From positions 19,205 to 83,204 of the forward strand of contig JAFXTB010000171.1 in assembly GCA_017525225.1 (NCBI GenBank): 64,000 bases of DNA, given 5' to 3'. Origin of the DNA: Kiritimatiellia bacterium. GTDB taxonomy: Bacteria; Verrucomicrobiota; Kiritimatiellia; RFP12; UBA1067. Positions 29,276-62,932 of the stretch are shown here, one piece after another. The notes under the pieces were generated by a model. The model was given only the letters and a program-made list of their open reading frames with translations. It was not told where the DNA came from and made no database searches. Position 1 is the first letter of the stretch. The number at the start of each line of letters is the position of its first letter. The translations under genes were made by a program, and so were the position numbers.

Positions 29276-32200
29276 CTACCTTAGGATTATCTGGAATCTC
29301 GGATAGGCCATGCGTACCTTCCTGCCGTTCAGGCAGATGACCCACGGCGGGGGAACGTCCGTGACCGTCGGGATCTGTCCGGAATAGTTCTCTGGCAGGA
29401 ACAGCAGCGTATAGCCGCGATCGGCCTTCTCCGCAAGTTCGCCGTTCAGAAGGTTGAACGAGCTTGGAAGCGTCATCGCGGACGTCACGGTGGTGGCGTT
29501 ACCAGCCTTCGCGGCGGCGATATCAAGAGCGCACTTGTTCGCGGGCAATGTCACGCTGCCAGCGTCGTTGACAACCGTGCCGCCCGCAAGCACCACCTGC
29601 TCCACGGCAGTGAGGTCGGGGATGTCCTGCGTAGTCAGGTCGAGCGTACCACCCTCCAGCCTTAGCGCGCGTGTGGAAGTCAACGCGGCGGCGTTCGACG
29701 AGACGAGCGTTCCGCCTGCCACGACGGTGGCGCCCGTGTAGCTGTTCGCGCAGTCGAGGACGAGCTTACCCGCGCCTTTCTTCGTGAGACCGCCGGAACC
29801 ATTCGCGGAAAGCGTGCAGGCTACGGTGAACGTATTCGTGTAGCCGCCCTTCGAGATCGTCGCCGTTGCGGACGTGTAGTTCTGTCCACGATTCAGCACG
29901 CGGAAACCCGTCACCTTGCCGGTCGTCGTATTGTAGATGGCAACGGCTGTCGCGCCGGTACCGGTGCCGGTTGGATCGGTGATCGTCACCGCCGGGGCCG
30001 CGATGTAGTCCCAGGCCTTGAGCGAAGCTATCGCGTTTGGAAGCGGAATGGATTCCACGCCGTTGCCCGTCGGCGCCTCCAGAGGCATGCCAACGGCGTT
30101 GTCGCGTCCGGCGGTGTCTATCGTCGCACCGCCGGAATGGATATAGACATGATCCGTCCCCGCCGTGAAGTTACGGAACAGCTTGCCCTTGCCGGTTGCG
30201 CTGGTATAATCTACCGACGTACGCAGAATGCCGTTGTTGAACGACACCAACGCCTTGTTGCCGGTCAAATCCGTCGAAACTTTGTTAAAGGTGGATTTCA
30301 ATATCTTGCTGAAACCGTTAGCTGCGATCGTTCCACCGTTGTTGATGTCGACCTCGCCGATGGAGTTGAACTGGCCGGCGAGCGCAATACCACTTGTCCA
30401 CTGGATCGAGTTCGTCGCCGAGGCGTTCTCTCCGTCCACGGCGAAAATGGCATGCGATCCCCCCGTCTTGTTTTCGCCATCCTGACGCGGGAAATACAGT
30501 ATCGAGGATGAAGTGAGCGTACCGCTGCCCGATACGCAAATCGTCGCCTGGGCGCCAGCCTGGCCGGCGCCTATGTCCTGTGTCGCGAACACGCCGCCCT
30601 TGATGTCTATGAACGACGTCACGCCTACCCTGCGCCCCATGCGGCAGTTGTTGTTGTTGTTGACGAACCTGCCGCCCTCTATGCTGGCATACATGTTATG
30701 GTAGCTACCGAAATACTGGTAACCGCCCGGCGTGATGAACGTCCCGCCATGCTGGAAGTACGATCCCTGCCAGTCCGAGTACTTAGCAGGGAGAGAGGGG
30801 TCTAAGAGATGCGACGATATCCTGTTGACGGTATCGCCGCCATCGATCCTGTTGGTCACGACCGCGCCTTCGTACAGTTCGATGATCCCTCTTCGCGTGT
30901 TGGACGAGTCGAGATAGTTGCGGGCGGCATACAGACCCGCATAGTTGCTCACGGCAACACCGTTCGTCTTGCTCTCATTCACGTAAGTACCCTTCACCAC
31001 GAAGCGCGCCACTTCAGGATAGTCGGCCGCGACGAACACGCAGTTGGAGCCTTCCGCCTCGGCATACGTTCCGGCGGGAACCGTCACCGTGCCGCCGCGA
31101 ACATCGATCCAGCCAACGCTCATCTTCTCGCCGGGCTGGCCCGCAAGGATCAGTTCGCCGCCTTCGTTGATGTAGTTCTGCCGTCCGTCCCCGGAAGATG
31201 CGATCGTGAGCGCATTCGTGCCACCGTGGTAGATCATAAGAGGCTCGTCGAGTGTGCGCGAAAATGTCCTGTCGGCCCCAAGCTCGTAGTTGAACGCAAA
31301 GAACTTGGTGCCTATCACGGTCGGCCACACGAGATTGTCGCTTACGCCCTTCCACATCGCATAAAGGGCATTGTCGGTGAGGTTCGTCGACGAGAGGTCG
31401 ATGTTGAGGACGCTATTCGTTCCACCCGTCACCCTGCCGTCAAGGACGCCGTATAACGGACCTGCGGCGTTGACCGTCACGCCTTTGTTGATCGTCAGCG
31501 CACCGGTGGTCGTGTTGGTGGTACAATTAAGGTTGAGTGTCGCGGGATAGTTGGCTCCGCTGGTGGCAATGATATCGGCGCCGCCGGAAATGACGTTCGG
31601 GACATCAAACGAGCAGAAGATCCCCAGGTTGTTTGCCTCTCGCAGGTCGAAAGTCAGCGTCCCGCTCGCCGGGGTGGTGAGAGTACCCCAAATGCCGTAG
31701 CTGCCAGTCCACCCCTTGCTACTTGCTTGCGAAGTTGCAGACGAGCATATCGTGGCATCGCCTTCGCAGACAACGTCCCATTCACACTTTTTAGCAGTCT
31801 GTATGCGCTGAGGACCCTCCTGAATCTTCGCGTTTGGCCCAAGGCGGATGACCGCCTTGTCGCCCTTCCAGACATAGCCGGAAGGCGCCCTGTTCATGTT
31901 GCCAGGCGTACTGTTCTCGAGATGCACCTTGCAGCTGCCGGTTGCATATATCTCACCCGGACCGTATATCGTATCTCCGCACAGTTCAAGCGTTCCGCCA
32001 TCTGCGGTCAGCTTATGGCCGTTGAAATACATGGCTTGTGTCGCACGCGGTCCCACCGTGGGCGAACACTTGAAAAGCGTATCGGCCGTGAGATGTACGG
32101 TACAGCCGTACATGATCTGGTTCTGGCTGTTTCCGATAGCACAGAGGGCGCCAGCACCCCCTACGCCCGTGCCGCCGATGTAGATGTTGTGCTGCCGGAG

Positions 32201-32602
32201 CAACGACCTGTTGGCGGCAACGCCACTTCCACCCAGTTCTATTGTCGCACCCGGTTCAAGGCGTAGCGTACGCGTACGAGTATTGTCATTGGTGCCGTCC
32301 GCCCATGACGTCATGAGGCGCACGTAGCCGTTGGATATGCCGAAATCCCCTTTCCAGTGCGACAGATCCCTGTTCATGACCAGGCGTCCGCCGCCTTTCT
32401 TTATGAGGGCATTCGACGTAGCGAGCGCATTCGCGTCGGCAGCGGTTATCGTATAGTCGCCTTCATTGTCCTCGACGGTTATCGTCACCTGCCCGGCGAC
32501 CGAGGTATCGACCATCGCCGCAAGAGAATGTAAAGTGAAAGATGTAGAATGTAAAATGGCGAGCACGGCGAGCAATGGATACGTTTTCACGAATTTCATC
32601 AT
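29276..32602 (-). CDS. Large secreted autotransporter-associated beta-strand repeat protein, no beta-barrel
   Basis: Start MMKFVKTYPLL; LIKKGGGRLVM, GGATIDTAG, GGLTKKGAGKLVLDCANSYTGATVVAGGTL; ends ...MAYPRFQIILR. Confidence 0.85.
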   Translation of the reverse strand: MMKFVKTYPLLAVLAILHSTSFTLHSLAAMVDTSVAGQVTITVEDNEGDYTITAADANALATSNALIKKGGGRLVMNRDLSHWKGDFGISNGYVRLMTSWADGTNDNTRTRTLRLEPGATIELGGSGVAANRSLLRQHNIYIGGTGVGGAGALCAIGNSQNQIMYGCTVHLTADTLFKCSPTVGPRATQAMYFNGHKLTADGGTLELCGDTIYGPGEIYATGSCKVHLENSTPGNMNRAPSGYVWKGDKAVIRLGPNAKIQEGPQRIQTAKKCEWDVVCEGDATICSSATSQASSKGWTGSYGIWGTLTTPASGTLTFDLREANNLGIFCSFDVPNVISGGADIIATSGANYPATLNLNCTTNTTTGALTINKGVTVNAAGPLYGVLDGRVTGGTNSVLNIDLSSTNLTDNALYAMWKGVSDNLVWPTVIGTKFFAFNYELGADRTFSRTLDEPLMIYHGGTNALTIASSGDGRQNYINEGGELILAGQPGEKMSVGWIDVRGGTVTVPAGTYAEAEGSNCVFVAADYPEVARFVVKGTYVNESKTNGVAVSNYAGLYAARNYLDSSNTRRGIIELYEGAVVTNRIDGGDTVNRISSHLLDPSLPAKYSDWQGSYFQHGGTFITPGGYQYFGSYHNMYASIEGGRFVNNNNNCRMGRRVGVTSFIDIKGGVFATQDIGAGQAGAQATICVSGSGTLTSSSILYFPRQDGENKTGGSHAIFAVDGENASATNSIQWTSGIALAGQFNSIGEVDINNGGTIAANGFSKILKSTFNKVSTDLTGNKALVSFNNGILRTSVDYTSATGKGKLFRNFTAGTDHVYIHSGGATIDTAGRDNAVGMPLEAPTGNGVESIPLPNAIASLKAWDYIAAPAVTITDPTGTGTGATAVAIYNTTTGKVTGFRVLNRGQNYTSATATISKGGYTNTFTVACTLSANGSGGLTKKGAGKLVLDCANSYTGATVVAGGTLVSSNAAALTSTRALRLEGGTLDLTTQDIPDLTAVEQVVLAGGTVVNDAGSVTLPANKCALDIAAAKAGNATTVTSAMTLPSSFNLLNGELAEKADRGYTLLFLPENYSGQIPTVTDVPPPWVICLNGRKVRMAYPRFQIILR

Positions 32603-32757
32603 GACACTCCTTTGGATTGAACCGTTGGTAGAGGACAACGCGTTATATTATGCCAGATTCTCGTCCCTGTCGCAAGCGGAAATCAGACGAACCTGTTTTA
32701 TCACAGCCGCCACATTTCGTCCCCCGCATCCTTGGCGCATCAAGCGGAAACGGTAGG

Positions 32758-32889
32758 TCACTTGATCTCGATGACCGTCGGCGGGGCGAAGTAGCGGATC
32801 TCAAGGGTGGGCGAACAGCCGACGAAGACGCTGTTGGACGATATCGCGTCCTGGAGATGGACGGGAACGAACGCGATCCGCAGGCCCGG
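32758..32889 (-). pseudogene. 3' remnant of a secreted-protein gene, truncated at the intergenic repeat
   Basis: Hand translation: PGLRIAFVPVHLQDAISSNSVFVGCSPTLEIRYFAPPTVIEIK*. Gene-like GC3-rich codons; no start; upstream the frame runs into repeat copy A and meets TGA within about 12 codons. Confidence 0.6.
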
Positions 32890-32989
32890 GCGAATAGCGG
32901 CGGAACGGTGACTCCCCTCGCATCAGAAACGGTTTCCGCTCAACGCGAAAGTCCGAACCAGCATGTCTCGCCAGCGATGAGCTCCAGCG
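32887..32989. repeat. Intergenic dispersed repeat, copy A
   Basis: CGGGCGAATA...ATCAGAAACGGTTTCCGCTCAACGCGAAAGTCCGAACCAGCATGTCTCGCC...ATGAGCTCCAGCG; 51 bp (32922-32972) identical to 35170-35220. Confidence 0.92.
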
Positions 32990-33032
32990 GTAATGAATTT
33001 CAGGAGTCCGGCGGCAAAAGCGCCTCCAGGCA

Positions 33033-34445
33033 TCAACTGTCCAGCGCCTGGCTGCAATCCAACTTGAACTCGGCAAGGTTGGCATCAAGGTTGAACTTGC
33101 CGTTCGCGAACGGCTTCATGAGCGCATCGTACTCCACCTTGCCGGTCGTTTCGCGCTTTACGTCCCAGTTCAGCGAAAAGCCCTCCTTCCTGCCGCGCCC
33201 GAGCTCCATGCACATCATGCCGAGCGAGGAAAGCGCCGTGGAAAGATGCCCTTCCTCCGCGTTGGTGGCGGTTTGCGCCGGATCGTTCGCCACAATCGCC
33301 TCCAGCCAGTCGTCGACATGCAGCTGCAGGCAGCTCTTCTCCATCTTCCACATCTTCGGCATCAGCTCCGGACGTGAGGCCTCCAACGGCCCCATCTCGC
33401 CCGGCTTGACGACGGGATCTGGATCGGTGGGCGTCACCTTGAACGCACCTCTCGTGCAGAAGATCCAATCACCTTTCTCCCCGATGAATTTCACGCCAAG
33501 CTGGAATTTGTCGGACACATGCACGTCCGTCTTGCCGCCGTTGAACGCAAAGTGGAGGTCGTAGGTGTCATGGACGTTCCAGAGCTTCCCGCCGCTCGTG
33601 TCGAGCCACGTGCACGTACCGGACACCGATTCCGGACCCGCCGCGCCCAGTCCCCATCGCGCGATGTCCAGATGGTGCGCGCCCCAGTTCGTGATCATGC
33701 CCCAGCCGTAGGGCATCAGCTCTATCCAGCCGGGACGGGCGCGCTGGTTCGTCTGGGAATGGCAGCGCGATTCGCAATAGGGCGCAGACGGATCCGTCGG
33801 CCCTAGCCAGGTCTGGTAGTCGAAGGTGGACGGAACCTTCTGCGGTGTACTCGATCCACCCGCAGGGTCTGTCCCCAAACCGACCTCCACGCGCCTGATG
33901 TCACCCAGAACGCCAGCCCTCACGGCCTTGACGGCGGCCTGGAACTGGCTCCAATTGCGCTGTTGGGAACCGACCTGGAAAACGGTGTTGTACCGCTTGG
34001 CCAGATTGGCGAGAAGCCGGCCTTCCCTTATCGTCTGCGCAAACGGCTTCTGCAGCCATACGGCCTTGCGCGAGCAGATCGCGGTCGTCGCCACGAGCGC
34101 ATGCCAGGAGTCCGGCAGGCAGATCATCACCGCATCGACATCTGTCTGCGCACAGACCTCCTTGTAGTCCCGATAGATGCGAATTTTCGTGCCGTCGGCA
34201 TATTCCCGCTCGACGCGCGATGCCGTCAGCTTCGCCCGTTTCATGTCAAGGTCGCAGACCGCAACGATGCGGGCGATGTCCTTTCTCGCCAAAACACCTG
34301 GCACCTCGAACTCGGTTGATATCCGTCCACACCCGATGATCGCCACGTTAATTTTGGAATTACCGCGGAACGTACGGCATCCGCCGAACAGGAACGGCAT
34401 GCCAGCCGCCATGGCCGCCGTCTTGATAAATTCACGTCTTTGCAT
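33033..34445 (-). CDS. Tat-exported Gfo/Idh/MocA family oxidoreductase
   Basis: MQRREFIK; INVAIIGCGRI, DAVMICLPDSWH, WLQKP, QVGSQQR, GMITNWGAHHLDIARW. Confidence 0.92.
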   Translation of the reverse strand: MQRREFIKTAAMAAGMPFLFGGCRTFRGNSKINVAIIGCGRISTEFEVPGVLARKDIARIVAVCDLDMKRAKLTASRVEREYADGTKIRIYRDYKEVCAQTDVDAVMICLPDSWHALVATTAICSRKAVWLQKPFAQTIREGRLLANLAKRYNTVFQVGSQQRNWSQFQAAVKAVRAGVLGDIRRVEVGLGTDPAGGSSTPQKVPSTFDYQTWLGPTDPSAPYCESRCHSQTNQRARPGWIELMPYGWGMITNWGAHHLDIARWGLGAAGPESVSGTCTWLDTSGGKLWNVHDTYDLHFAFNGGKTDVHVSDKFQLGVKFIGEKGDWIFCTRGAFKVTPTDPDPVVKPGEMGPLEASRPELMPKMWKMEKSCLQLHVDDWLEAIVANDPAQTATNAEEGHLSTALSSLGMMCMELGRGRKEGFSLNWDVKRETTGKVEYDALMKPFANGKFNLDANLAEFKLDCSQALDS

Positions 34446-34475
34446 TGTTGGTTTCCTTGTGATTTCAAATTGGTT

Positions 34476-34550
34476 TAGGACTTAGGACGTCAGACGTCAG
34501 GACTGAGGATGTCGGACATGAAGAGGTTGGAAGTCTTAAGTCCGAAGTCC
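34476..34550. repeat. Degenerate heptamer-repeat tract with inverted symmetry
   Basis: TAGGACTTAGGACGTCAGACGTCAGGACTGAGGATGTCGGAC...GGAAGTCTTAAGTCCGAAGTCC; roughly 7-nt periodicity; ends are imperfect reverse complements. Confidence 0.55.
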
Positions 34551-34965
34551 TTCGTAGAACTTTTCGTATCTCGGCATCGGTTCGAGGATGCCGCCGGATT
34601 TGGCGTAGTAGTCGGCGTCGCACTCGAAGACGCCCTTCTCCGTGCGCGTCCAGTGCGCGTCGGGATAGGCGAGATCCTTGCGCATCGTCTCCCAGTTGCG
34701 GAAGTTCATGTGGCCGTTCGTTTCGACGAGCCCGAGATCGCCGATGCCCGGATGTCACGCGCACATAGGCGGAGACGATCCACTCTTCCGTCATGTATCC
34801 ACCCTTGAAGCCGAACGGACGCACCATCGGCTCGCGCTCGAAGCCACAGCTGGTCTTCGCTATGGTGATAGGTCTGGCGGCGGTCTGTGGGCTGGCGGCC
34901 GCAAACGACATCCTCGGCGCGGCGGCGGCGGCAAGCCCTGTCACGACAAAATCCCTTCTGGTCAT
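34536..34965 (-). pseudogene. Tat-exported enolase-superfamily (L-Ala-D/L-Glu epimerase-like) gene with large internal deletion and frameshift
   Basis: N-part MTRRDFV...FEREPMVRPFGFKGGYMTE; C-part in another frame (hand translated) PGIGDLGLVETNGHMNFRNWETM...YYAKSGGILEPMPRYEKFYEGLRT*; junction near 34750; total 430 nt, not a multiple of 3. Confidence 0.75.
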
Positions 34966-35039
34966 TTATGCAGTTCCTTTCTGGTTTGGGCGCATGGCCA
35001 CATGCGGACGCCCCAGATGTGGCAATTCACCGAGGCAAG

Positions 35040-35090
35040 ATTATATAGCACAGAAGGCTGTCGAGCAATATACCCAAATGGCACCATTGC
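35040..35090 (-). promoter_or_regulatory. Sigma70-like promoter with adjoining 26-bp operator-like box (copy 1)
   Basis: Minus-strand TATAAT (35040-35045) and TTGCTC (35063-35068), 17-bp spacing; GCAATATACCCAAATGGCACCATTGC at 35065-35090 is identical to 42350-42375. Confidence 0.75.
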
Positions 35091-35098
35091 GGACATTC

Positions 35099-35237
35099 TA
35101 CGTCACGAAATATGTAAATGTCAGATTTCGTGACGGGCGAATAGCAGCGGAATGGAAATGATGCCCAGTATCAGAAACGGTTTCCGCTCAACGCGAAAGT
35201 CCGAACCAGCATGTCTCGCCCGCTATGAGCTCCAGCG
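35099..35237. repeat. Intergenic dispersed repeat, copy B, including an 11-bp inverted repeat
   Basis: CGTCACGAAAT-N13-ATTTCGTGACG (35101-35135) followed by the core shared with copies A and C. Confidence 0.92.
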
Positions 35238-35349
35238 AAAGGATTCCGTCTGCTGTCGGCTCCAGTTTCCCGGTCTTGAGATTCACTATAGTGGCGGAAT
35301 ACGGCAAACGGAACTCGTATCGGCCAGGTGCCAGGCAATGAAAGTGTTT

Positions 35350-36792
35350 CTATATGCCAAGCAACTTTCGCGCGGGAATCAAGGCGGCGAAATATCCGTC
35401 CGCCTCGACTCTTGGACTGATCTCGCCGTCATAGACCAGCACGGGGCGCTTGCTGACATTCTTCCTGACGTGCAGCAGCTTCATCTTCTCCTCCACATCC
35501 TTCTCGACACCGCCATCGATGTCCTTCCTTTTCACTTCCACGACATACGCCGTACGCGGAGTCTGGACCAACAGGTCGATTTGGCAAACCCGACGTCGAC
35601 CAGATCGGTCTTTGCGCACGCTTCGGAAAGGTGCGGCAGATTCGATCGTAGTTCCGCCGATACCGAGATGCGGGTACAGCTCCACGGCATTGTTCACAAT
35701 GAGATTCTCGAACGCGAGCCCCATGACCGCGCTCCATTCCGGGAGCGCCGACAGCGTTGTGAAGCGATACGCCCCGCGCTTGATCTGAGCCTTTCGCGGC
35801 TCGATGAATTTGAGATAGAACCTCGAGTAATTGTCGCGCAGCCGATATCTGGACACACGGGACTCCTCGCCTGTTTTAGGGTTGATGCCCGGATCCGAAT
35901 CGACAAAGCCGCCTTCGGACAGTTCACGAAGCATCTCGGCGATGCGCCCGTTACGGTCTTCGCCCATCTTCTCGGCAATCTCGGCACCGCTCATTGCTCC
36001 ATTCGCCAATAACGACAGAATACGCCGCTGTTTCATGACCCGTTCGCCGAAAATCGGGTTGAAGATGGCGTCGAAATCATTATAGAGTTCCCCCTCTTTT
36101 CTGAAACACAGTCGCCGGATGTTTTCCTCGGATGTCAGCCCAGGATCAACTTCCTCAAGATACCGCGGCACACCTCCAGTCACCGAGAGGACGTCGAATA
36201 TCTCGCGCGGAACAAGATTGTCGACATGAGGTCGCCAGAATTCCGCGCATTCCGCCAGCGACAGCTCCGTCAGCACATAATCCCGCGAAAAACGTCCCGT
36301 GAACCCGGTGCTGCCAAGGATGTTCTCCTTTATCCACGCCGAAACAGAGCCGCATATCACAAAGATCAACCTGTCGTGACGGTGAAACAACGATTCCCAG
36401 GCATTGCGAAGGATGCCGGAAAAGTTTGAATCCCCGCTGCCCATCCAGGATATCTCGTCCAGCATGACAACCGTCTTTCTTTCATCGTCAATCGCCCGGT
36501 CCAGCCAGAAGAAGGCGTCGTTCCAACTCAGCATGTTCTGCACCGGCGAATTCGTAAGCCGGGCGAGACGCGCCGCGAACTCACGCAGCTGGTCTTCGTT
36601 CGTCACGGGTTTTTCGGGATTCGGCGGCAACCCCTCGAATTCGTAATACACATCCGCAGTTCTGCGGGCAAATTCCCGGAAAAGCGTCGACTTGCCGATG
36701 CGCCGTCTGCCGCGGCACGCTACCAGCGATGATGTTCGCTTGCGCCAAAGCGATTCCAAGTCACTTAACTGATCTTCTCTGCCTATAAACAT
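35350..36792 (-). CDS. AAA/archaeal-type ATPase with winged helix and C-terminal PD-(D/E)XK-like domain
   Basis: MFIGRE, Walker A GRRRIGKSTL, Walker B VMLDEISW, ICGS, TGGVPRYL, wHTH SGAEIAEKMG, GLAFEN, QIDLLV...YVVEVK. Confidence 0.9.
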   Translation of the reverse strand: MFIGREDQLSDLESLWRKRTSSLVACRGRRRIGKSTLFREFARRTADVYYEFEGLPPNPEKPVTNEDQLREFAARLARLTNSPVQNMLSWNDAFFWLDRAIDDERKTVVMLDEISWMGSGDSNFSGILRNAWESLFHRHDRLIFVICGSVSAWIKENILGSTGFTGRFSRDYVLTELSLAECAEFWRPHVDNLVPREIFDVLSVTGGVPRYLEEVDPGLTSEENIRRLCFRKEGELYNDFDAIFNPIFGERVMKQRRILSLLANGAMSGAEIAEKMGEDRNGRIAEMLRELSEGGFVDSDPGINPKTGEESRVSRYRLRDNYSRFYLKFIEPRKAQIKRGAYRFTTLSALPEWSAVMGLAFENLIVNNAVELYPHLGIGGTTIESAAPFRSVRKDRSGRRRVCQIDLLVQTPRTAYVVEVKRKDIDGGVEKDVEEKMKLLHVRKNVSKRPVLVYDGEISPRVEADGYFAALIPARKLLGI

Positions 36793-36860
36793 AACTTCCC
36801 CTTCTCAGCAAGAACAATAAGTATTATTGCATATTCCCCGTCGGAAAACAACCATAAACT

Positions 36861-36893
36861 GTCACCGAATTACAAAAAGTAAAATTCCGTGAC
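36861..36893. promoter_or_regulatory. Second inverted repeat upstream of the ATPase gene (putative operator)
   Basis: GTCACCGAATT-N11-AATTCCGTGAC (one mismatch); related to the IR at 36914-36948, which starts about 54 bp further on. Confidence 0.6.
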
Positions 36894-36911
36894 GGACGCC
36901 ACTGTCGATTT

Positions 36912-37039
36912 TACGTCACGAAATATGTAAATGTCAAATTTCGTGACGGGCGAATAACGGCGGAACGGCGACTTCCCTCGCATCAGAAACGGCACCTGGT
37001 CAACGCGAAAGTCCAAACCAGCATGTCTCGCCCGCTATG
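36912..37039. repeat. Intergenic dispersed repeat, copy C, including an 11-bp inverted repeat
   Basis: TACGTCACGAAATATGTAAATGTCAAATTTCGTGACGGGCGAATA...CATCAGAAACGG...TCAACGCGAAAGTCCAAACCAGCATGTCTCGCCCGCTATG; direct repeat of copy B, 1813 bp away. Confidence 0.92.
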
Positions 37040-37043
37040 CGAA

Positions 37044-38975
37044 CTACCGTGCGGCTGGGGCGAGCCGCAAGAAGGATACACCTATTGGATCCAAGTAGAG
37101 TCTGATTTTCGACAGACCATCCATTGTGGCTGGGCTACCGACTTCTGGGCCGACCATGCGCCACTCGCCGCCGGAAAGGTCTATCGCCGCATAGAGGGGC
37201 TTGTCGTCAATGTTACACGCGAGCACGTACAGGTCACCGTCCTTGATCCATGTTCGGCATACGAGCGAGTCCGAATCCGGCTTTGCGCTGGGGGCGCGAT
37301 CAATGGAGAGCAACACTGGAATCATACGCGCAACCTCACGATAGGATTCCACGGTAACCGCCCAGAGTGGACGCCAGTCTTGACGGTTCAGGGGGTAGAA
37401 GAAACAATGGTAGGCGAATGGCATCAGACCATTTGCGCCAAGCGCGATATGTTGCCAGTTGATGGAACGCAACTCCGCGAGGGTCGGAAATCGGCCATTA
37501 ACCTGAGTAAGATCAGCATTATACCACAACCAGGCGAACGACTGAGGTACACTCCAATGTGGGAGTGTGTCAAACACTGCCTTGCGCCCATCACGCATGA
37601 ATTCCGTAATCCGCCTCACCGGAAGTTTTGGTACCGGATACGGGTCAAGACCGATGACATCTGCCGCAACGGCGAAGGCATCCAGATCATATACGCGATC
37701 CTGTACAAGATACGTGGGATGGTCGGGATCACGTTCGGCGATGAATCTGTTGAGCGCGGTCACGTTCTTGGCCTTGCGTACATCATATTCGTCACCAAGG
37801 TACCAGCCAAGGAGGGCAGGATGCCCTTTGATGGCGGCGATGGCGGTTTCGAGTTTGGCCTTTGCGACATTGGCTTCTGGCATCTGTGCCGTAGCGGCCA
37901 CGTTCCACAGTTTGTGGTCGATGGCGGAGAATGACATCAACCCAGCCTTTTGGCAGAAGTCCAGCCGATTCGAGGTCATCATCTCGTAGTGGATCACACA
38001 ATTGAACGGACCGTTCGTGTAGGCCGCCATCTGCTTCTCGTTCGGATTCCAGTACATGCCGAGCGGGAAGAATGGTTTGCCGTCCACGATGCAGCGCCGG
38101 TAGCTGTCGATCCAGACGCGCCTCCTGGGAAGCGCCGCCACGCGCGTGAAGTCGATCGAGGCGGCCCCCAGCGCCTTGCCGTCCGCAAGGAGTTCGAAGA
38201 CGATCGTCTGCCGCCCCATCGTGAAGCGCGAGACGTCCAGATCGACTGCGGCCTCACGGTCGGTGAGCCGCGTGGCCGGCGTGCGCACCTTCCGTCCGTC
38301 GGCATCCGTCCAGATGAACGCGGCGGAGATCGCCTTGCCCTTCGCATCGTTCGGCATGTGGATGCTGGCGTGGAAATCAGCCATGCCCTCGGCGGCGGTG
38401 TTGCGATAGACCGAGGTACAGACGAAGGCGACGGGATCACCACGCTTGAACTTCCGCACCACGATGTTGTCCCAGCTCACCTTGCCATCGCTGTCGCCCG
38501 AGACGTAGATTACCACAACGGGATTCTTGGTCCCTTCTGGGACTTGGCCCGACGACTCGATGAGCGTCCATTCGCCGTCTGGCTGGGTCTTCTTCATCGT
38601 CGCATAGAGCGCGAGGATCCACTTGTTCGTCTCGTCGCGCATCTCGATGCTGAACACCGATCCCTGGTTCGCGGCCGTCTTGAACCCATCCTTCTTCACG
38701 AGCGCCTGATACTCCAGGATGTCGCCCGGATTCACGCCCTCGAGCCGTTGCCTCGCCACATGGAGCTTTCCGCAGGGTTTATCCGACTCCCACACAAGCC
38801 CGTCCGAACCGTTATGCCCTGCGCCCTTGGCGATGCGGAAGTTTCCGGACACGATCCAGCCGACCGGCTTCCCCTTCTCGTCGAACTCATCGAACGACGT
38901 GTTCTGAAGCAGCGTCTCCTCGGCCATGGCGGACATGGCGGTGACGACGGCGAAAGCGAACGCGATCTTTTGCAT
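37044..38975 (-). CDS. Exported protein with N-terminal carbohydrate-binding-like domain and GH-A-like catalytic domain
   Basis: Start reassigned to MQKIAFAFAVV; LLQNTSFD...WDNIVV (CBM4-like); VDGKPFFPLGMY, HPALLGWYLGDE, IGLDPYP. Confidence 0.65.
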   Translation of the reverse strand: MQKIAFAFAVVTAMSAMAEETLLQNTSFDEFDEKGKPVGWIVSGNFRIAKGAGHNGSDGLVWESDKPCGKLHVARQRLEGVNPGDILEYQALVKKDGFKTAANQGSVFSIEMRDETNKWILALYATMKKTQPDGEWTLIESSGQVPEGTKNPVVVIYVSGDSDGKVSWDNIVVRKFKRGDPVAFVCTSVYRNTAAEGMADFHASIHMPNDAKGKAISAAFIWTDADGRKVRTPATRLTDREAAVDLDVSRFTMGRQTIVFELLADGKALGAASIDFTRVAALPRRRVWIDSYRRCIVDGKPFFPLGMYWNPNEKQMAAYTNGPFNCVIHYEMMTSNRLDFCQKAGLMSFSAIDHKLWNVAATAQMPEANVAKAKLETAIAAIKGHPALLGWYLGDEYDVRKAKNVTALNRFIAERDPDHPTYLVQDRVYDLDAFAVAADVIGLDPYPVPKLPVRRITEFMRDGRKAVFDTLPHWSVPQSFAWLWYNADLTQVNGRFPTLAELRSINWQHIALGANGLMPFAYHCFFYPLNRQDWRPLWAVTVESYREVARMIPVLLSIDRAPSAKPDSDSLVCRTWIKDGDLYVLACNIDDKPLYAAIDLSGGEWRMVGPEVGSPATMDGLSKIRLYLDPIGVSFLRLAPAAR

Positions 38976-38986
38976 GGTCCCTCCCA

Positions 38987-41900
38987 TCAACGGAAATTCA
39001 CGGTGAACCCCGCCGGCACAAACGAGATTCTGTCCGTCTCCACCTCCACATACTTGCGCGTCGAGCCGCCGCCGCGCAGCCACATGGTGCCGGTCGTCTG
39101 CACGCCGCCTCCCGCCGTGAGAACCGTGACCGGCGCGCCGGTCACGGGACCGATCCCTGACGGCGCGAAGTAATGCATCACCGAAGCCAGCGTGGCCACG
39201 CCGCTCACCGGCAACAGCGTCGCGCCCGAGGTGGCCAGCGTGGCGCCCTCGGCGAACGTAATCGCGCCCACGGTCGTGTTGGCCGCGTCGAACGGCGCGG
39301 AATCGTAGGTGCCGTCCGCACGCACGCTGATCGCGTTGATGGTGAGCGCCTTGGGCGCGCCCACCGCGTCGGTCGCCCGGAACCCGCCGCCCGGTGCGCC
39401 CAGCGTGAGCGTCGCGAGCGTCGCACCAGTCGCGTTGGTGTTCACCACCACGCCCACGATGCCGTCCGCGACGACCTCCGTGAGCTGGCCGTTCGTGAAC
39501 GCGTTCATCACGAACGACTGCGCCCCATTGCCCTTGATCGTGAGCGGCCCGTTAAGCTCCCAGCGCGGTCCGCGGCTCGGCACCGTATCGCCAGAGAATC
39601 CGGCGGGGTAGGTTGTCAGACTCGCCGGGTAGAGCGAATCGGCGACCATGTTCGAGTACACGGAGCAGACCGTCTTCGCCTCCGAGAAGTCGAACGTACC
39701 GCCGTTCGGGCCGATCGTCACCTTCAGGTCAACCGTGTAGCCGCCGTCGAACGTATCGGTCCGGCTCACGTTGGTCGCCCTGCGCCCCACGAAGAGGCGA
39801 TTGCCGGTCGAGCCGCTATGCGCATAGTCGGGATCGTATCCAAACCCGCTGCCCAGCTTGTAGGTACCGCCGTCAAGCGTGACGAACGTCCCGGATTCGT
39901 ACGGCACACCATAGTGAGCGGAGGAATCTAATGTGTGCGTAACGGGTGCCATCACATATGCGCGATCCGTCTCTAGCACGCCGCCGTTCACGACCTTGAT
40001 GTCAACCATCGGGCAACGGTCTGCCGCATCGTTCTTGAGCTGGTTGGCCGGCCATGTGCTGAAGATGAACCGCCCGTCGGGTTCCTTCAGCGTCACCGTG
40101 CCGCCGTTCACGAGAAGCGTGGAATGGCTGCGCCAGTAACCACCACCGATCGAGAACGCACGGTAGCGTTCAAGTGTGAGACTTGCGCCGGACGCCACCT
40201 CTAGCGTGCTGGGATCGGTGCCTCGCGTGGCCACCGAGACGCCTGTGCCGTCTGTCCCAGAGGAGAAAAGCACCTCTACGCCATCCGTGAGCAGCGCATG
40301 ACGAGCTCGTTCGATGATGGTCATCGTGGCGTTGCCCTCGAACTTCCACTTTTTGCCCGCGCCGGAAAGCACAAGATTGCCGAAGTGCAGGTACAGATCC
40401 CCAACATCCTCCTGTACGTCCGCCGCCTTCACAGTACCGCCGCCCGTGAACTTCACGCAGCCGGACGGCCACACGTCTTTACCATCGACCAGCACGGCGT
40501 CCGTGACTTCGTTCGTCACTGACAGTCTTCTCTTCAGCAGAACCGCGCCGGCGACCTCGCCGGTGACGTTCAGCGCCGAACCGATCCGCGAACTAGAATC
40601 GACCGTCAGGGAAGACGAGATCGTGCACGGACGGGCAAAGTAGATCATGCCACCGTCGAGAACGAGATCCGTTGCGGCAGTGAAGCCGTCACCGCCAACG
40701 ACAAGCGTCTCGCCGACGCCCACGGTGATCGTCCCGGCAGGCTCCGTGACGAGGCCGCGAACACTCGCCCGGTAGTTGCCCGTGCCGAGGATGCGCGACG
40801 CGTCAACGACCGAGCCGCTCGGCAGATAGAGGATCGCGCCGTCCGTCGTGGTGACGGTCATGTTCGCGTTCCAAGTGTTCATCGCCGGCAGAAACAGCGT
40901 ACCATTCCCGGATACCGTGATGTTCCCCGTATATCCGGAAAGGTCGTCGATCTTGATCCGCCTCCCGGAGAACACCACCGCGCCAGTGATGCCGGCCGGC
41001 ATGGCGGAGAGGTGCTTGTCGTCGCCCGTCACCTTCACCGTACCGGAGAAGCCGTTGAAATTGATCTCTTGCGGGGAACCTTCCGCGATCTCCACCGTTC
41101 CCGCGCCAGACACGGAAAACCGCCCAGAGGCAGGCAGGCTTGCCAACCTCACCGTCGCGCCGCTCTTGACTTCAAGCGGCTGCGTACCGCCGTTGGCGAC
41201 GTAGTAGGCCTCGCAGTCGCCGATCGTGCTCGTCGTGCCGTTGCCAGTGACGGTGATGGAACCGAGATCGAGCGTCACACCCTCGAACGTCTGGGAGGCC
41301 TTGAGCGAGGCGCCATTGGCAAGGATGAGGTGATCCGTGTAGTCCGCGCCCAACGTAAGCGCATGCGTCGCCGAATCGAAGATGATGTACGTTTTCGCGT
41401 CGGCCAGGGTGATGGACTTCGCCTTCACCGAGGCAACGGATGCCGAGAGCTGAAGCTTCGCGCCATTGGTGAACACCATGTCGCAACCAGAAAGGTCGTT
41501 CGCTTTCGAGAATCTGTATTGCCCGAGCGCGGCGGTGGCGTCATACTTGAACGTCCACGTCACATCGTCCTCGGTCGTCACGGGAAGATTGAAATTGACG
41601 CCCGTGTTGGAATCCCACATCTGCGACGCGGTGATATGCAACCCGCCGGAGAAGAACATGGACATCACCGCGTCCCACGCTCGGGGCGCGGTGAACCCTC
41701 CCGCGCCAACCTCCATGCGCCCATTGCCGGTCCAGTTGCGTGCGCCTGAGGCATACTTGATGCCATAGGGTTTTATCGTGATATCAGCATTGAGCGTACC
41801 AGGATCCATCCCCGTCACGGCCGGCGTGAGCCAATCAGGAGTGTAGGCAGTATAGACGCAGAACCAGTTGCCGTCCACCCAATCCACGCCCGTGCTGCCG

Positions 41901-42324: not shown

Positions 42325-42401
42325 ATTATACACCACGTTTGGTGAGCGGGCAATATACCCAAATGGCACCATTGCCGCAGGCCGGCGTATTATGATAAAA
42401 T
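42325..42401. promoter_or_regulatory. Back-to-back promoters sharing the 26-bp box (copy 2)
   Basis: Minus: TATAAT 42325-42330 and TTGCCC 42348-42353 (17-bp spacing). Plus: TTGCCG 42372-42377 and TGATAAAAT 42393-42401. Box at 42350-42375. Confidence 0.7.
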
Positions 42402-61522: not shown

Positions 61523-62932
61523 TCAAGCACGGAACAAATCGTCGGCGGTAACTTCCGATTGGACAATCGATGCATTTTCGTTGCGTTTAACGCCATTCAT
61601 CGTCACAAGCGTCAGATGCACGGCACACTCCGTGCCAGTTTCTTCCTTGAAAATCGCGACCTTGTTCGCAAGTTTTCCGGCATAGTCCGGCGTGATCGCA
61701 AACTGACCCGTTGAAAACTTCATCTCACAGACATTGATCACGCCATCGCGTCTTGCCAGCAGCATGTCGATCTGGGCACCGCCTTTTTTCCTGTCACTCC
61801 GCCATGAACACAATTCCGTTATCACACCGCCGATGCGCAACGCCTCCTTTATCTCGCGGCTATGCATGAAACAGACCCTCTCAAACGCCAGGCCTTCCCA
61901 GGCCCGACGTTCGGGCAGGTCGGCCGCCATTGACCAGAAACCGTTCCCGACGGTCTGTGCGATACGCATGAATCTGAAATGGAAAAGGGCAAAAGCGTCT
62001 ACAAGCTGATAAAGGGCCCCTTTCTTTCGTCTACCAAATGGAAGGAACACCTTTATGAATCCACTTTGCTCCAGTTCATTCAGCCACCTCGTCAGCTTGC
62101 CGGCGTTACTGACATTTGCGGCATGCGCGAGTTCTTCGCGCGTCATTCCTCCTGACGACTTCCCAAGAACGGTAACAAGCCTCAGATAAAGATCAGGACG
62201 CCGAAACACGGATTCAAACAGACGCCTGAACTCCGGAACAAGCTCCCCGGACGGCGAGAAATACAGCCTATCGAGGTTTTGCGCGAAAGAGAATCGCCTG
62301 TCGAGAAGACTCCAGTAATATGGAACACCGCCAAACACCATGTAGGCCTCAACCACTTCCCGCCGACTCATGACAATCCCTTTTTCCCGAACATACGCCT
62401 CGCAGTCATGCAATGTAAAGGGTTGGAGATTGATGGTTCTAGAAGCGCGGTTGAAAAGGCCTCCTTTGTTACGCAGAACCTTCTGCGTCATCCAGGACGT
62501 CGCACTTCCGCAGACGATGAGGACGATATCCTTTCGCGCCGAACACCAACCATTCCAGAAGTGTTCGAACGCACACAGAAAAGACGACCTCGGCGTATCC
62601 ATCCAGGGCAGTTCATCGATGAACACGATCTTGCGTCCGTCGCCACGGCCAGCGAGAAACTTCTTCAGTAGCGAAAACGCCTCAATCCAAGTCTTGGGGA
62701 CTGGGCAATCCGCCCACCCATGATCAACCAGAGACTCACGGAACTGATGCAGCTGCTCTGACAACATTCCCTTTTCCATCCCCGTATGCGAGAACGCAAA
62801 AGAATAGTTAAACGCCTCTCGAATCAGAAACGTCTTTCCAATACGGCGACGGCCATAGACAACGACAAGACTGGAACGATCACCCGCCGCAATCGCCCGC
62901 AGTTCCTCGATTTCTTCATCTCGACCGACCAT
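61523..62932 (-). CDS. AAA/archaeal-type ATPase with winged helix and C-terminal PD-(D/E)XK-like domain (second copy)
   Basis: MVGRDEE, GRRRIGKTFL, VFIDELPW, VCGSATSW, FGGVPYY, MTREELA, GLAFE, AQIDML...VCEMKF. Confidence 0.92.
   Translation of the reverse strand: MVGRDEEIEELRAIAAGDRSSLVVVYGRRRIGKTFLIREAFNYSFAFSHTGMEKGMLSEQLHQFRESLVDHGWADCPVPKTWIEAFSLLKKFLAGRGDGRKIVFIDELPWMDTPRSSFLCAFEHFWNGWCSARKDIVLIVCGSATSWMTQKVLRNKGGLFNRASRTINLQPFTLHDCEAYVREKGIVMSRREVVEAYMVFGGVPYYWSLLDRRFSFAQNLDRLYFSPSGELVPEFRRLFESVFRRPDLYLRLVTVLGKSSGGMTREELAHAANVSNAGKLTRWLNELEQSGFIKVFLPFGRRKKGALYQLVDAFALFHFRFMRIAQTVGNGFWSMAADLPERRAWEGLAFERVCFMHSREIKEALRIGGVITELCSWRSDRKKGGAQIDMLLARRDGVINVCEMKFSTGQFAITPDYAGKLANKVAIFKEETGTECAVHLTLVTMNGVKRNENASIVQSEVTADDLFRA

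Follow-up and report, generated by a model that had tools for sequence, protein, structure and literature searches.

Direct repeats built from displaced gene tails are known at islands that integrate into the 3' ends of genes, such as the prophages e14 and 21 at icd. Here we describe a three-copy direct repeat that brackets a single ATPase gene in a 64,000-nucleotide (nt) stretch (the window) of contig JAFXTB010000171.1 of a Kiritimatiellia bacterium, whose genome comprises 4.2 Mb in 180 contigs. The gene encodes an ATPase joined to a winged helix-turn-helix (wHTH) domain and a PD-(D/E)XK-type nuclease domain, and its product matches the family PDC-S27. The accessible text of PMC12988326 presents PDC-S27 as an ATPase fused to a PD-(D/E)XK domain, a widespread, putative defence candidate that awaits validation. 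Those parts of the literature on PDC-S27, or on DUF234 with an ATPase, that were available to us are silent on flanking repeats, on the boundaries of a module and on private palindromic operators. Every copy of the repeat described here contains the end of a lost gene, which we call X, and two of the three copies also contain the palindromic 5' terminus (pal1) of the ATPase module. We regard the element as probably a composite recombination scar, in which two unrelated pieces, the X tail (copies A, B and C) and pal1 (copies B and C), were joined. Coordinates below are positions in the window; C followed by a number denotes a contig of this genome, G:C a relative's genome and contig, and L a homologous locus that was compared.

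Composition of the repeat copies

The three copies lie in direct orientation, as the first-pass annotation of the sequence had proposed, at 32887-32995 (A), 35095-35243 (B) and 36908-37039 (C). A repeat search of the window returned them as a 93-nt family of three (32887-32979, 35135-35227 and 36947-37039, at spacings of 2248 and 1812) and as a 61-nt family common to B and C (35095-35155 and 36908-36968, 92% identical), whose spacing of 1813 upholds the 1813-bp unit that had been described as enclosing the ATPase gene. Reading of the sequence also confirmed the 51-bp run identical in A and B, to the right of which these two copies have 13 further nt in common; B and a metagenomic copy (described below) match further still, up to about 35253. 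The additional palindrome of B and C is present as claimed, CGTCACGAAAT-N13-ATTTCGTGACG, a perfect 11-N13-11 repeat at 35101-35135 and 36914-36948. The edges first drawn for these two copies had to be moved, since the sequence they have in common stops precisely with the last base of a -10 hexamer (36908 and 35095). The inverted ends CGGGCGA...TCGCCCG, previously taken as the boundary of the core, did not hold up; a 7-nt pair of this kind is no more than chance would give, and its right end lies inside codons of the gene relic described next.

The core of the repeat had been taken for an intergenic element, and it is instead a coding relic, namely the last 12-53 codons, the stop codon and the ~52-nt trailer of gene X. 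In the minus-strand frame, every copy ends in ...AGETCWFGLSR followed by a stop codon. The parts of the three copies are these:

37003..37039, minus strand: gene-X relic of copy C, last 12 codons IAGETCWFGLSR, with the stop codon at 37000-37002
36949..36999, minus strand: trailer of gene X in copy C, ~51 nt, one hairpin arm replaced by a patch (6 of 8 nt)
35188..35349, minus strand: gene-X relic of copy B, 53 codons and the stop codon
35136..35187, minus strand: trailer of gene X in copy B, hairpin arms kept, loop replaced by a 12-nt patch
32943..32995, minus strand: gene-X relic of copy A, ~17 codons LPLELIAGETCWFGLSR, with the stop codon at 32940-32942
32887..32939, minus strand: trailer of gene X in copy A, ending at the same nucleotide as in B and C

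All genes of the 29276-39083 stretch are on the minus strand, and each copy there is 3' of a gene's stop codon. Copy C begins 4 nt past the stop codon of a 679-amino-acid (aa) open reading frame (ORF; 37044-39083) that keeps its own complete C-terminus. The relic in copy B follows directly after the stop codon of the ATPase gene and is open for 53 codons in the same frame, and the relic in copy A lies 44 nt past the stop codon of a GFO/IDH/MocA oxidoreductase gene. After the trailer of copy A comes the truncated tail of a leucine-rich-repeat (LRR)-like gene, with no pal1. The hairpin of the trailer is kept in A and B, as it is in the metagenomic copy, and is broken in C.

Gene X was recognized through homologs in other genomes of the same family. 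A 21-nt motif of the core, searched with up to 2 mismatches, occurs in 18 of 220 such genomes compared to 4 for the reversed pattern, which served as the control. In ten loci (L028, L029, L035, L037, L038, L039, L040, L042, L043 and L044), the motif marks the C-terminus of an ORF, or of a shorter piece of one, in which the last ~50 residues can be aligned with copy B. In seven of the ten (L035, L037, L039, L040, L042, L043 and L044), the reading frame reaches the edge of the locus still open, at 510 aa or more, and the ORF in L029 is 333 aa long; the L042 locus comes from the genus of the window genome. In tblastn searches, the copy B fragment is 37-58% identical to five intact X tails, and 39% identical to a sixth over a stretch that runs past the ATPase stop codon. 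The similarity of the relics to the C-termini of intact homologs is in frame and ends at the same stop codon. No intact X was found in the window genome by tblastn, where the other matches reach 23-29% identity only, and a Pfam scan assigned no family to X, to the 679-aa ORF or to an 1112-aa ORF elsewhere in the window. X appears to be a secreted, enzyme-like gene of at least 510 aa that is intact in relatives and absent from the window genome. At L038 (G239:C18), there is a second apparent X relic, with just 50 open codons before the conserved C-terminal motif. The possibility that a longer but internally deleted X relic lies upstream of copy A was rejected, as 146 of 300 shuffled sequences scored as well in local alignment.

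By blastn (word size 7) against the 180 contigs, the core occurs in three copies at this one locus only, and by blastn it is absent from 60 relatives and from 400 genomes of the class. The 220 family genomes gave two weak blastn matches, both to the coding ends of intact X genes, and the exact core pattern had 0 matches in species-representative genomes. A fourth copy lies on metagenome contig L016, where ~21 X codons and the trailer follow a complete DUF4838 gene and are 91-93% identical to the window copies over 80-91 nt. This copy faces the end of a convergent AAA_14-DUF4143 ATPase gene and has a T-run after the hairpin and no palindrome. Because the proteins of L016 are only 31-53% identical to their best homologs in the window genome, the X tail is far better conserved than its surroundings. 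Confinement of the copies to this place had been named in advance as grounds for abandoning the cassette-like or MITE-like element; within the genome, the blastn results largely bear such confinement out, and the single outside copy stands beside another ATPase-nuclease gene.

A miniature inverted-repeat transposable element (MITE) was rejected as the identity of the repeat, since the copies are not dispersed among the 180 contigs, have no real terminal inverted repeats and are not surrounded by a duplicated flank in any case. An integron cassette with an attC site was also rejected, since the window contig contains no recombinase (PF00589 matches occur only on C53, C16 and C37) and the core folds no better than shuffled sequences, as judged without a dedicated attC model. 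For copy A, the folding energy gave z = +0.54 and +0.64 on the two strands, and when either strand of each copy was folded, nothing but the palindrome added stability. A structured RNA, which had also been suggested, gained no support from these values or from a cmscan search of Rfam over 30000-40000 (0 matches at E ≤ 1), and the variable patches break the hairpin in C and do not compensate, four copies being too few for covariation. The earlier reading as a MITE-like or cassette-like element is consequently not supported as to identity, and its other part, that the repeats go with ATPase-nuclease genes, with breakpoints and with modules being gained and lost, holds in another form.

The position of the copies could also reflect a function in cis, in which the X tail and its hairpin trailer are kept as a terminator, insulator or 3'-end RNA behind the 679-aa gene, the ATPase gene and the GFO/IDH/MocA gene, and selection accounts for the 91-93% identity of the metagenomic copy. 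The core does follow a complete same-strand gene, 0-44 nt past its stop codon, in 4 of 4 copies; the hairpin arms are kept in A and B although the loop of B has been replaced; and the T-run in L016 comes after the hairpin of a copy placed between convergent genes. Still, we judge this function quite unlikely, because the folding energy of the core alone is no better than that of shuffles, copy C is without one hairpin arm, and the window copies have no T-run and drew no hit in a terminator scan. Absence from the 220 family and 400 class genomes searched would also be odd for a useful module.

The ATPase module and its palindromes

The ATPase module comprises the following features, of which copy B repeats a part:

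36908..36948, minus strand: pal1 of copy C with a promoter-like site, TTGACA-18-TAAAAT (11/12 matches), the 5' terminus of the module
36861..36893, minus strand: pal2, an imperfect palindrome (10-nt arms, 13-nt spacer, 9/10 complementary), which copy B does not have
35350..36792, minus strand: ATPase_2 - HTH - PD-(D/E)XK-type gene, 480 aa, PDC-S27 in PADLOC
35095..35135, minus strand: solo pal1 of copy B with a promoter-like site, CTGACA-18-TAGAAT (10/12 matches)

The protein matches the PDC-S27 profile PDLC04984 with E = 9.4e-80 (residues 2-438 of 480 on profile positions 4-428 of 474) and has a D...EVK motif near its C-terminus. The spacer of pal1 holds a -35-like hexamer and a -10-like hexamer then follows, and the two sites so formed are the best promoter-like sites of the region. 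Copy B holds only the first ~41 nt of the module, and 4 nt further on stands the 26-nt box that belongs to the promoter of the next operon.

The boundaries of the module are sharp. Locus L049 (G088:C56), from another genus, encodes a 95%-identical ATPase, and its DNA matches window 36947 to 35350 at 87.6% over 1598 nt between unrelated flanks, so that homology runs from the outer edge of pal1 to the ATPase stop codon. A stretch homologous to pal2 is present in L049, with pal2 inside the module. The other genes in 20 kb of the window are 66-77% identical to those of G088 over alignments longer than 400 nt, with three short stretches (101-189 nt) at 81-87%. Given this difference, the palindromes, the promoter and the ORF make up a separate module, one whose common ancestry is more recent than that of the DNA around it. 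By the limits of this alignment, the X tail lies outside the ATPase module, and the module is horizontally shared, moving between genomes as a unit.

Nine ATPase paralogs with 46-62% identity are encoded in the genome (on C125, C27, C6, C53, C73, C70, C110 and C58, plus the window gene), and every one of them carries, 42-121 nt before the start codon, a palindrome of its own with a TATAAT-like box after it. The arms are 11-16 nt and the spacers 7-15 nt long, and the palindromes are next to or overlap the TATAAT-like promoter; C58, C70 and the window gene have two palindromes each. In 9 of 9 paralogs, the best upstream palindrome has 11 or more matched arm bases, which is so in 12 of 400 control upstream regions (Fisher test). 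The half-site of pal1 is common to the closest paralog, C125, and to the relative L051, both 62% identical, and distant paralogs have different half-sites. This pattern suggests that each paralog protein reads its own operator. The predicted wHTH domain of the window protein probably binds pal1 and pal2, which would result in autoregulation of the ATPase gene, and the solo pal1 promoter in copy B may feed the decayed operon of ORF166 and the GFO/IDH/MocA gene. A second ATPase gene of the window (61523-62932) is 29% identical to the first and matches PDC-S27 more strongly (E = 5e-187, 620 bits); its upstream palindrome is only a weak one, with 10 matched bases, and no repeat flanks the gene.

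A site-specific cassette system could likewise account for edges of this kind, with pal1, by its 11-nt inverted arms and 13-nt spacer, as a recombinase core-like site at which the ATPase-wHTH-nuclease cuts and joins, and with pal1-to-trailer units (ATPase; ORF166-GFO) as the pieces exchanged. The trailer/pal1 junction is the point at which A, B and C all end; both units begin with pal1 and finish with the X tail and trailer; the 5' edge of the module is exactly the outer edge of pal1; and the protein combines a nuclease-type motif with an HTH. We know of no PD-(D/E)XK ATPase that acts as a recombinase, the repeats of the other bracketed family members (next section) exclude the palindrome, and the pattern occurs at one locus only, where neither a circle nor an empty site was seen. 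Moreover, a palindrome lying over -35 and -10 hexamers looks like a plain operator. We consequently hold such a system to be very unlikely.

Direct repeats around other family members

Direct repeats are enriched around the ATPase family. Flanks of 1.5 kb were searched, and a gene was counted as bracketed when a direct repeat of at least 37 nt had both copies within 400 nt of it, with the following results:

Close paralogs in the window genome: 2 of 9 bracketed (2 of 14 with the distant paralogs)
Relatives, first set: 4 of 29 (L051, L058, L065 and L077)
Relatives, second set: 3 of 40 (L110, L115 and L128)
Control ORFs of 400-560 aa in the window genome: 2 of 300 (one on C119, and the window's own GFO/IDH/MocA gene)

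Any repeat at E ≤ 0.01 was found around 29 of the 300 controls, of which the strict criteria leave two. The close paralogs differ from the controls in a Fisher test (2/9 versus 1/299, p = 0.002), as do the six clean cases (window, C110, L058, L065, L077 and L115) among 78 genes (versus 2/300, p = 0.001). The window gene is bracketed by a repeat of 133 nt with a period of 1813, and the C110 paralog by a repeat of 84 nt (93% identical) with a period of 1815. The C110 repeat consists of the last 28 codons of a convergent neighbour gene, with the real gene end on one side of the ATPase gene and a dead copy on the other. No repeats were found around the two AAA_14-DUF4143 paralogs of the genome.

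At L077 (G166:C38), the block made up of the module with a 37-nt repeat before it and the repeat plus 12 nt behind it is 99% identical to L082 (G132:C250), and the flanks differ; L083 (G132:C35) has a solo copy of the L077 repeat next to an 89%-identical flank. These three loci are the closest approach to an occupied and empty site pair that was found. The search for an empty site of L051 was ambiguous, since its repeat is partly a dispersed element resembling repetitive extragenic palindromic (REP) sequences, and no empty site was found for the window locus. In L115 (G134:C13), the ATPase paralog is bracketed by a 187-nt repeat (98%) nested in a 42-nt repeat (95%) over the promoter and start codon, and the order promoter-repeat ... 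repeat-promoter resembles a circular permutation.

Origin of the copies and comparison with known systems

As in a tandem, terminally redundant duplication, the trailer/pal1 junction is present twice and there is a single novel junction, between the ATPase stop codon and the 53-codon X tail (X53). The duplicated unit of 1813 nt would consist of pal1, pal2, the ATPase gene, X53 and the trailer, which runs back into pal1, and the stretch from 37039 to 35095 (1946 nt) would represent about 1.07 lengths of it. A stretch of this make-up would explain the two occurrences of the trailer/pal1 junction and the lack of any gap between the ATPase stop codon and X53, and also why C starts abruptly after a complete foreign gene and B ends abruptly at the -10 hexamer. 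It also fits the lack of an X body in the genome and the presence of the same tail beside another ATPase-nuclease gene in an unrelated contig. Such a structure could arise by tandem duplication, by integration of a concatemer derived from a circle, or by Campbell-type recombination of a circle with the X tail as passenger, and we could not distinguish among these three mechanisms. Copy A, which ends at the same nucleotide as B and C, would be a third, shorter tail copy left by a further event of the same kind, for example by a previous insertion at this point, the interior of which then gave way to the ORF166-GFO segment.

The genes and relics around the copies are as follows:

37044..39083, minus strand: 679-aa ORF
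35065..35090, minus strand: 26-nt box, 17 nt upstream of TATATAAT, promoter of ORF166-GFO
34465..34965, minus strand: ORF166, 166 aa, remnant of a longer gene
33033..34445, minus strand: GFO/IDH/MocA oxidoreductase
32706..32886, minus strand: LRR-like gene relic (labelled by eye, with no Pfam match), last 42 codons and ~55-nt trailer
29276..32638, minus strand: 1120-aa PATR-repeat protein

The gene truncation noticed earlier at the left edge of copy A is real, because window 32706-32891 is 94% identical to C152:29800-29985, which holds the last 42 codons and trailer of a 314-aa leucine-rich-repeat-like ORF. The two halves of ORF166 are adjacent here and about 965-975 nt apart in five relatives. 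The ends of this gene show unusual conservation, being 82-89% identical in nucleotide sequence between genera. An 88%-identical paralog of the GFO/IDH/MocA gene lies on another contig (C25:46249-47747 compared to window 33058-35078); there, a related promoter and signal-peptide start are joined directly to the gene, without ORF166 between them, and the last 8 codons differ. The operator box reported beside copy B occurs exactly twice in the 4.2-Mb genome, and its twin (42350-42375) does lie at the two-component operon indicated. This twin lies between the divergent 1112-aa gene and histidine-kinase/LuxR pair, on the minus strand and 18 nt upstream of the TATAAT of that gene, and the pair may be the regulator that acts at the box. 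No transposase or integrase was found among the 44 ORFs of the window scanned against Pfam, in agreement with the initial description.

We also considered whether the arrangement is an artefact of assembly. Contigs of four sequencing runs were placed on 31500-40000; contigs of this type drop rare variants, and the parts they leave uncovered prove nothing. Contigs of runs X2 (36177-40000), X3 (36271-37539) and X6 (36820-37139), from three studies, span copy C with 0-3 differences. The left junction of copy B is covered by run X2 (34689-35142) and its right junction by runs X2 (35191-36121) and X6 (35208-35568), and contigs break inside the repeat, as expected. Since copy C is bridged and both flanks of B are covered by contigs of independent samples, misassembly is unlikely; the arrangement is common to animal-gut samples of several studies.

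Decay around the copies leads to a different account of their origin, in which the movement of ATPase genes has no role. An ancestral X followed by the ATPase gene would have undergone tandem duplication, and deletions during decay would have left three tails, making the repeats uninformative about movement of the ATPase. The locus does hold other relics (the LRR-like tail and the internally deleted ORF166, with an 88% GFO/IDH/MocA paralog elsewhere), the copies are at one genomic locus only, the contig encodes no recombinase, and the arrangement is fixed in independent samples. Set against this are the lack of an X body anywhere in the genome, the placing of duplication endpoints within a few nt of an independently defined module 3' end, the recurrence of bracketing repeats around other family members, and the 91-93% identical tail in an unrelated context on a contig whose proteins are 31-53% identical. 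On balance, we consider a purely local history somewhat unlikely.

Several observations weigh against the composite scar that we favour. In the contigs of the four runs, circle junctions, tandem arrays and collapsed B-C forms are all absent, so that neither the collapsed alleles nor the circular 1.8-kb junctions once anticipated were seen; the contig joints listed are short-sided (under 40 letters) and agree with paralogs from other organisms. No donor arrangement of intact X and module was found in the ten X loci, whose downstream sequence is unrelated and contains no ATPase, and in G088 the module occurs without a flanking repeat. The copies differ by 12-15%, in patches, which suggests that they are old or were already diverged when joined, and pairwise distances do not make B and C the youngest pair. 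Copy A needs an extra event, and another is needed to put the ORF166-GFO segment in place of a putative second module. Three of the nine bracketed cases may be coincidental, as the repeats of L051 and L128 are a dispersed REP-like repeat and that of L110 is reiterated within its own locus. The controls for bracketing come from the window genome only, and related genomes are not independent samples.

A scar of this composition would also be compatible with a broader scheme, speculative and in our estimate unlikely, in which single-gene ATPase-wHTH-PD-(D/E)XK defence candidates of PDC-S27 (and perhaps PDC-S01) are self-contained mobile modules, each delimited by a private palindromic operator and a stop codon. 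These modules would spread without a classical recombinase through circular or concatemeric intermediates and would integrate with a long and variable terminal redundancy of 37-250 nt, dragging along the gene tails of former neighbours, and the window would be the fossil of two such insertions at one point.

With the composite scar, an apparent new repeat element becomes an explained one, and the private operators and recurrent long flanking repeats of the PDC-S27-like family are of more interest than the repeat itself. The analysis further delimits, at the level of sequence, a defence candidate that is widespread and uncharacterised, and it yields a regulatory hypothesis, that each paralog reads its own palindrome. 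The flanking repeats also give a hint of the way in which single-gene defence modules pass from one genome to another and come to truncate neighbouring genes; if this is true, scars of this type could be used to trace the traffic of defence genes in gut metagenomes.

Among known systems, MITEs and REP elements are similar in being short, repeated and apparently non-coding sequences between genes. Unlike them, the window repeat is not dispersed and has neither significant terminal inverted repeats nor a target-site duplication. Integron arrays resemble the locus in their same-strand genes separated by a repeated spacer of ~100-130 nt with inverted repeats, as in attC sites. By contrast, the window core is a relic of coding sequence rather than a folded attC, its spacer folds no better than chance, there is no IntI, the copies number only three, and the cassette has its own promoter. 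Of the features of an islet flanked by att sites, direct repeats are present, no recombinase lies on the window contig and no empty site was found for the window locus, and a solo repeat exists in G132:C35 for another family member. Islands at gene 3' ends differ from the locus in that the window has no integrase, the gene body before the first copy is missing, one repeat includes part of the insert (pal1), and the insert is a single 1.6-kb gene. The likeness to these islands lies in the repeats themselves, which in both cases are direct, consist of the last codons and trailer of a gene, flank accessory DNA and include one copy that is a dead tail.

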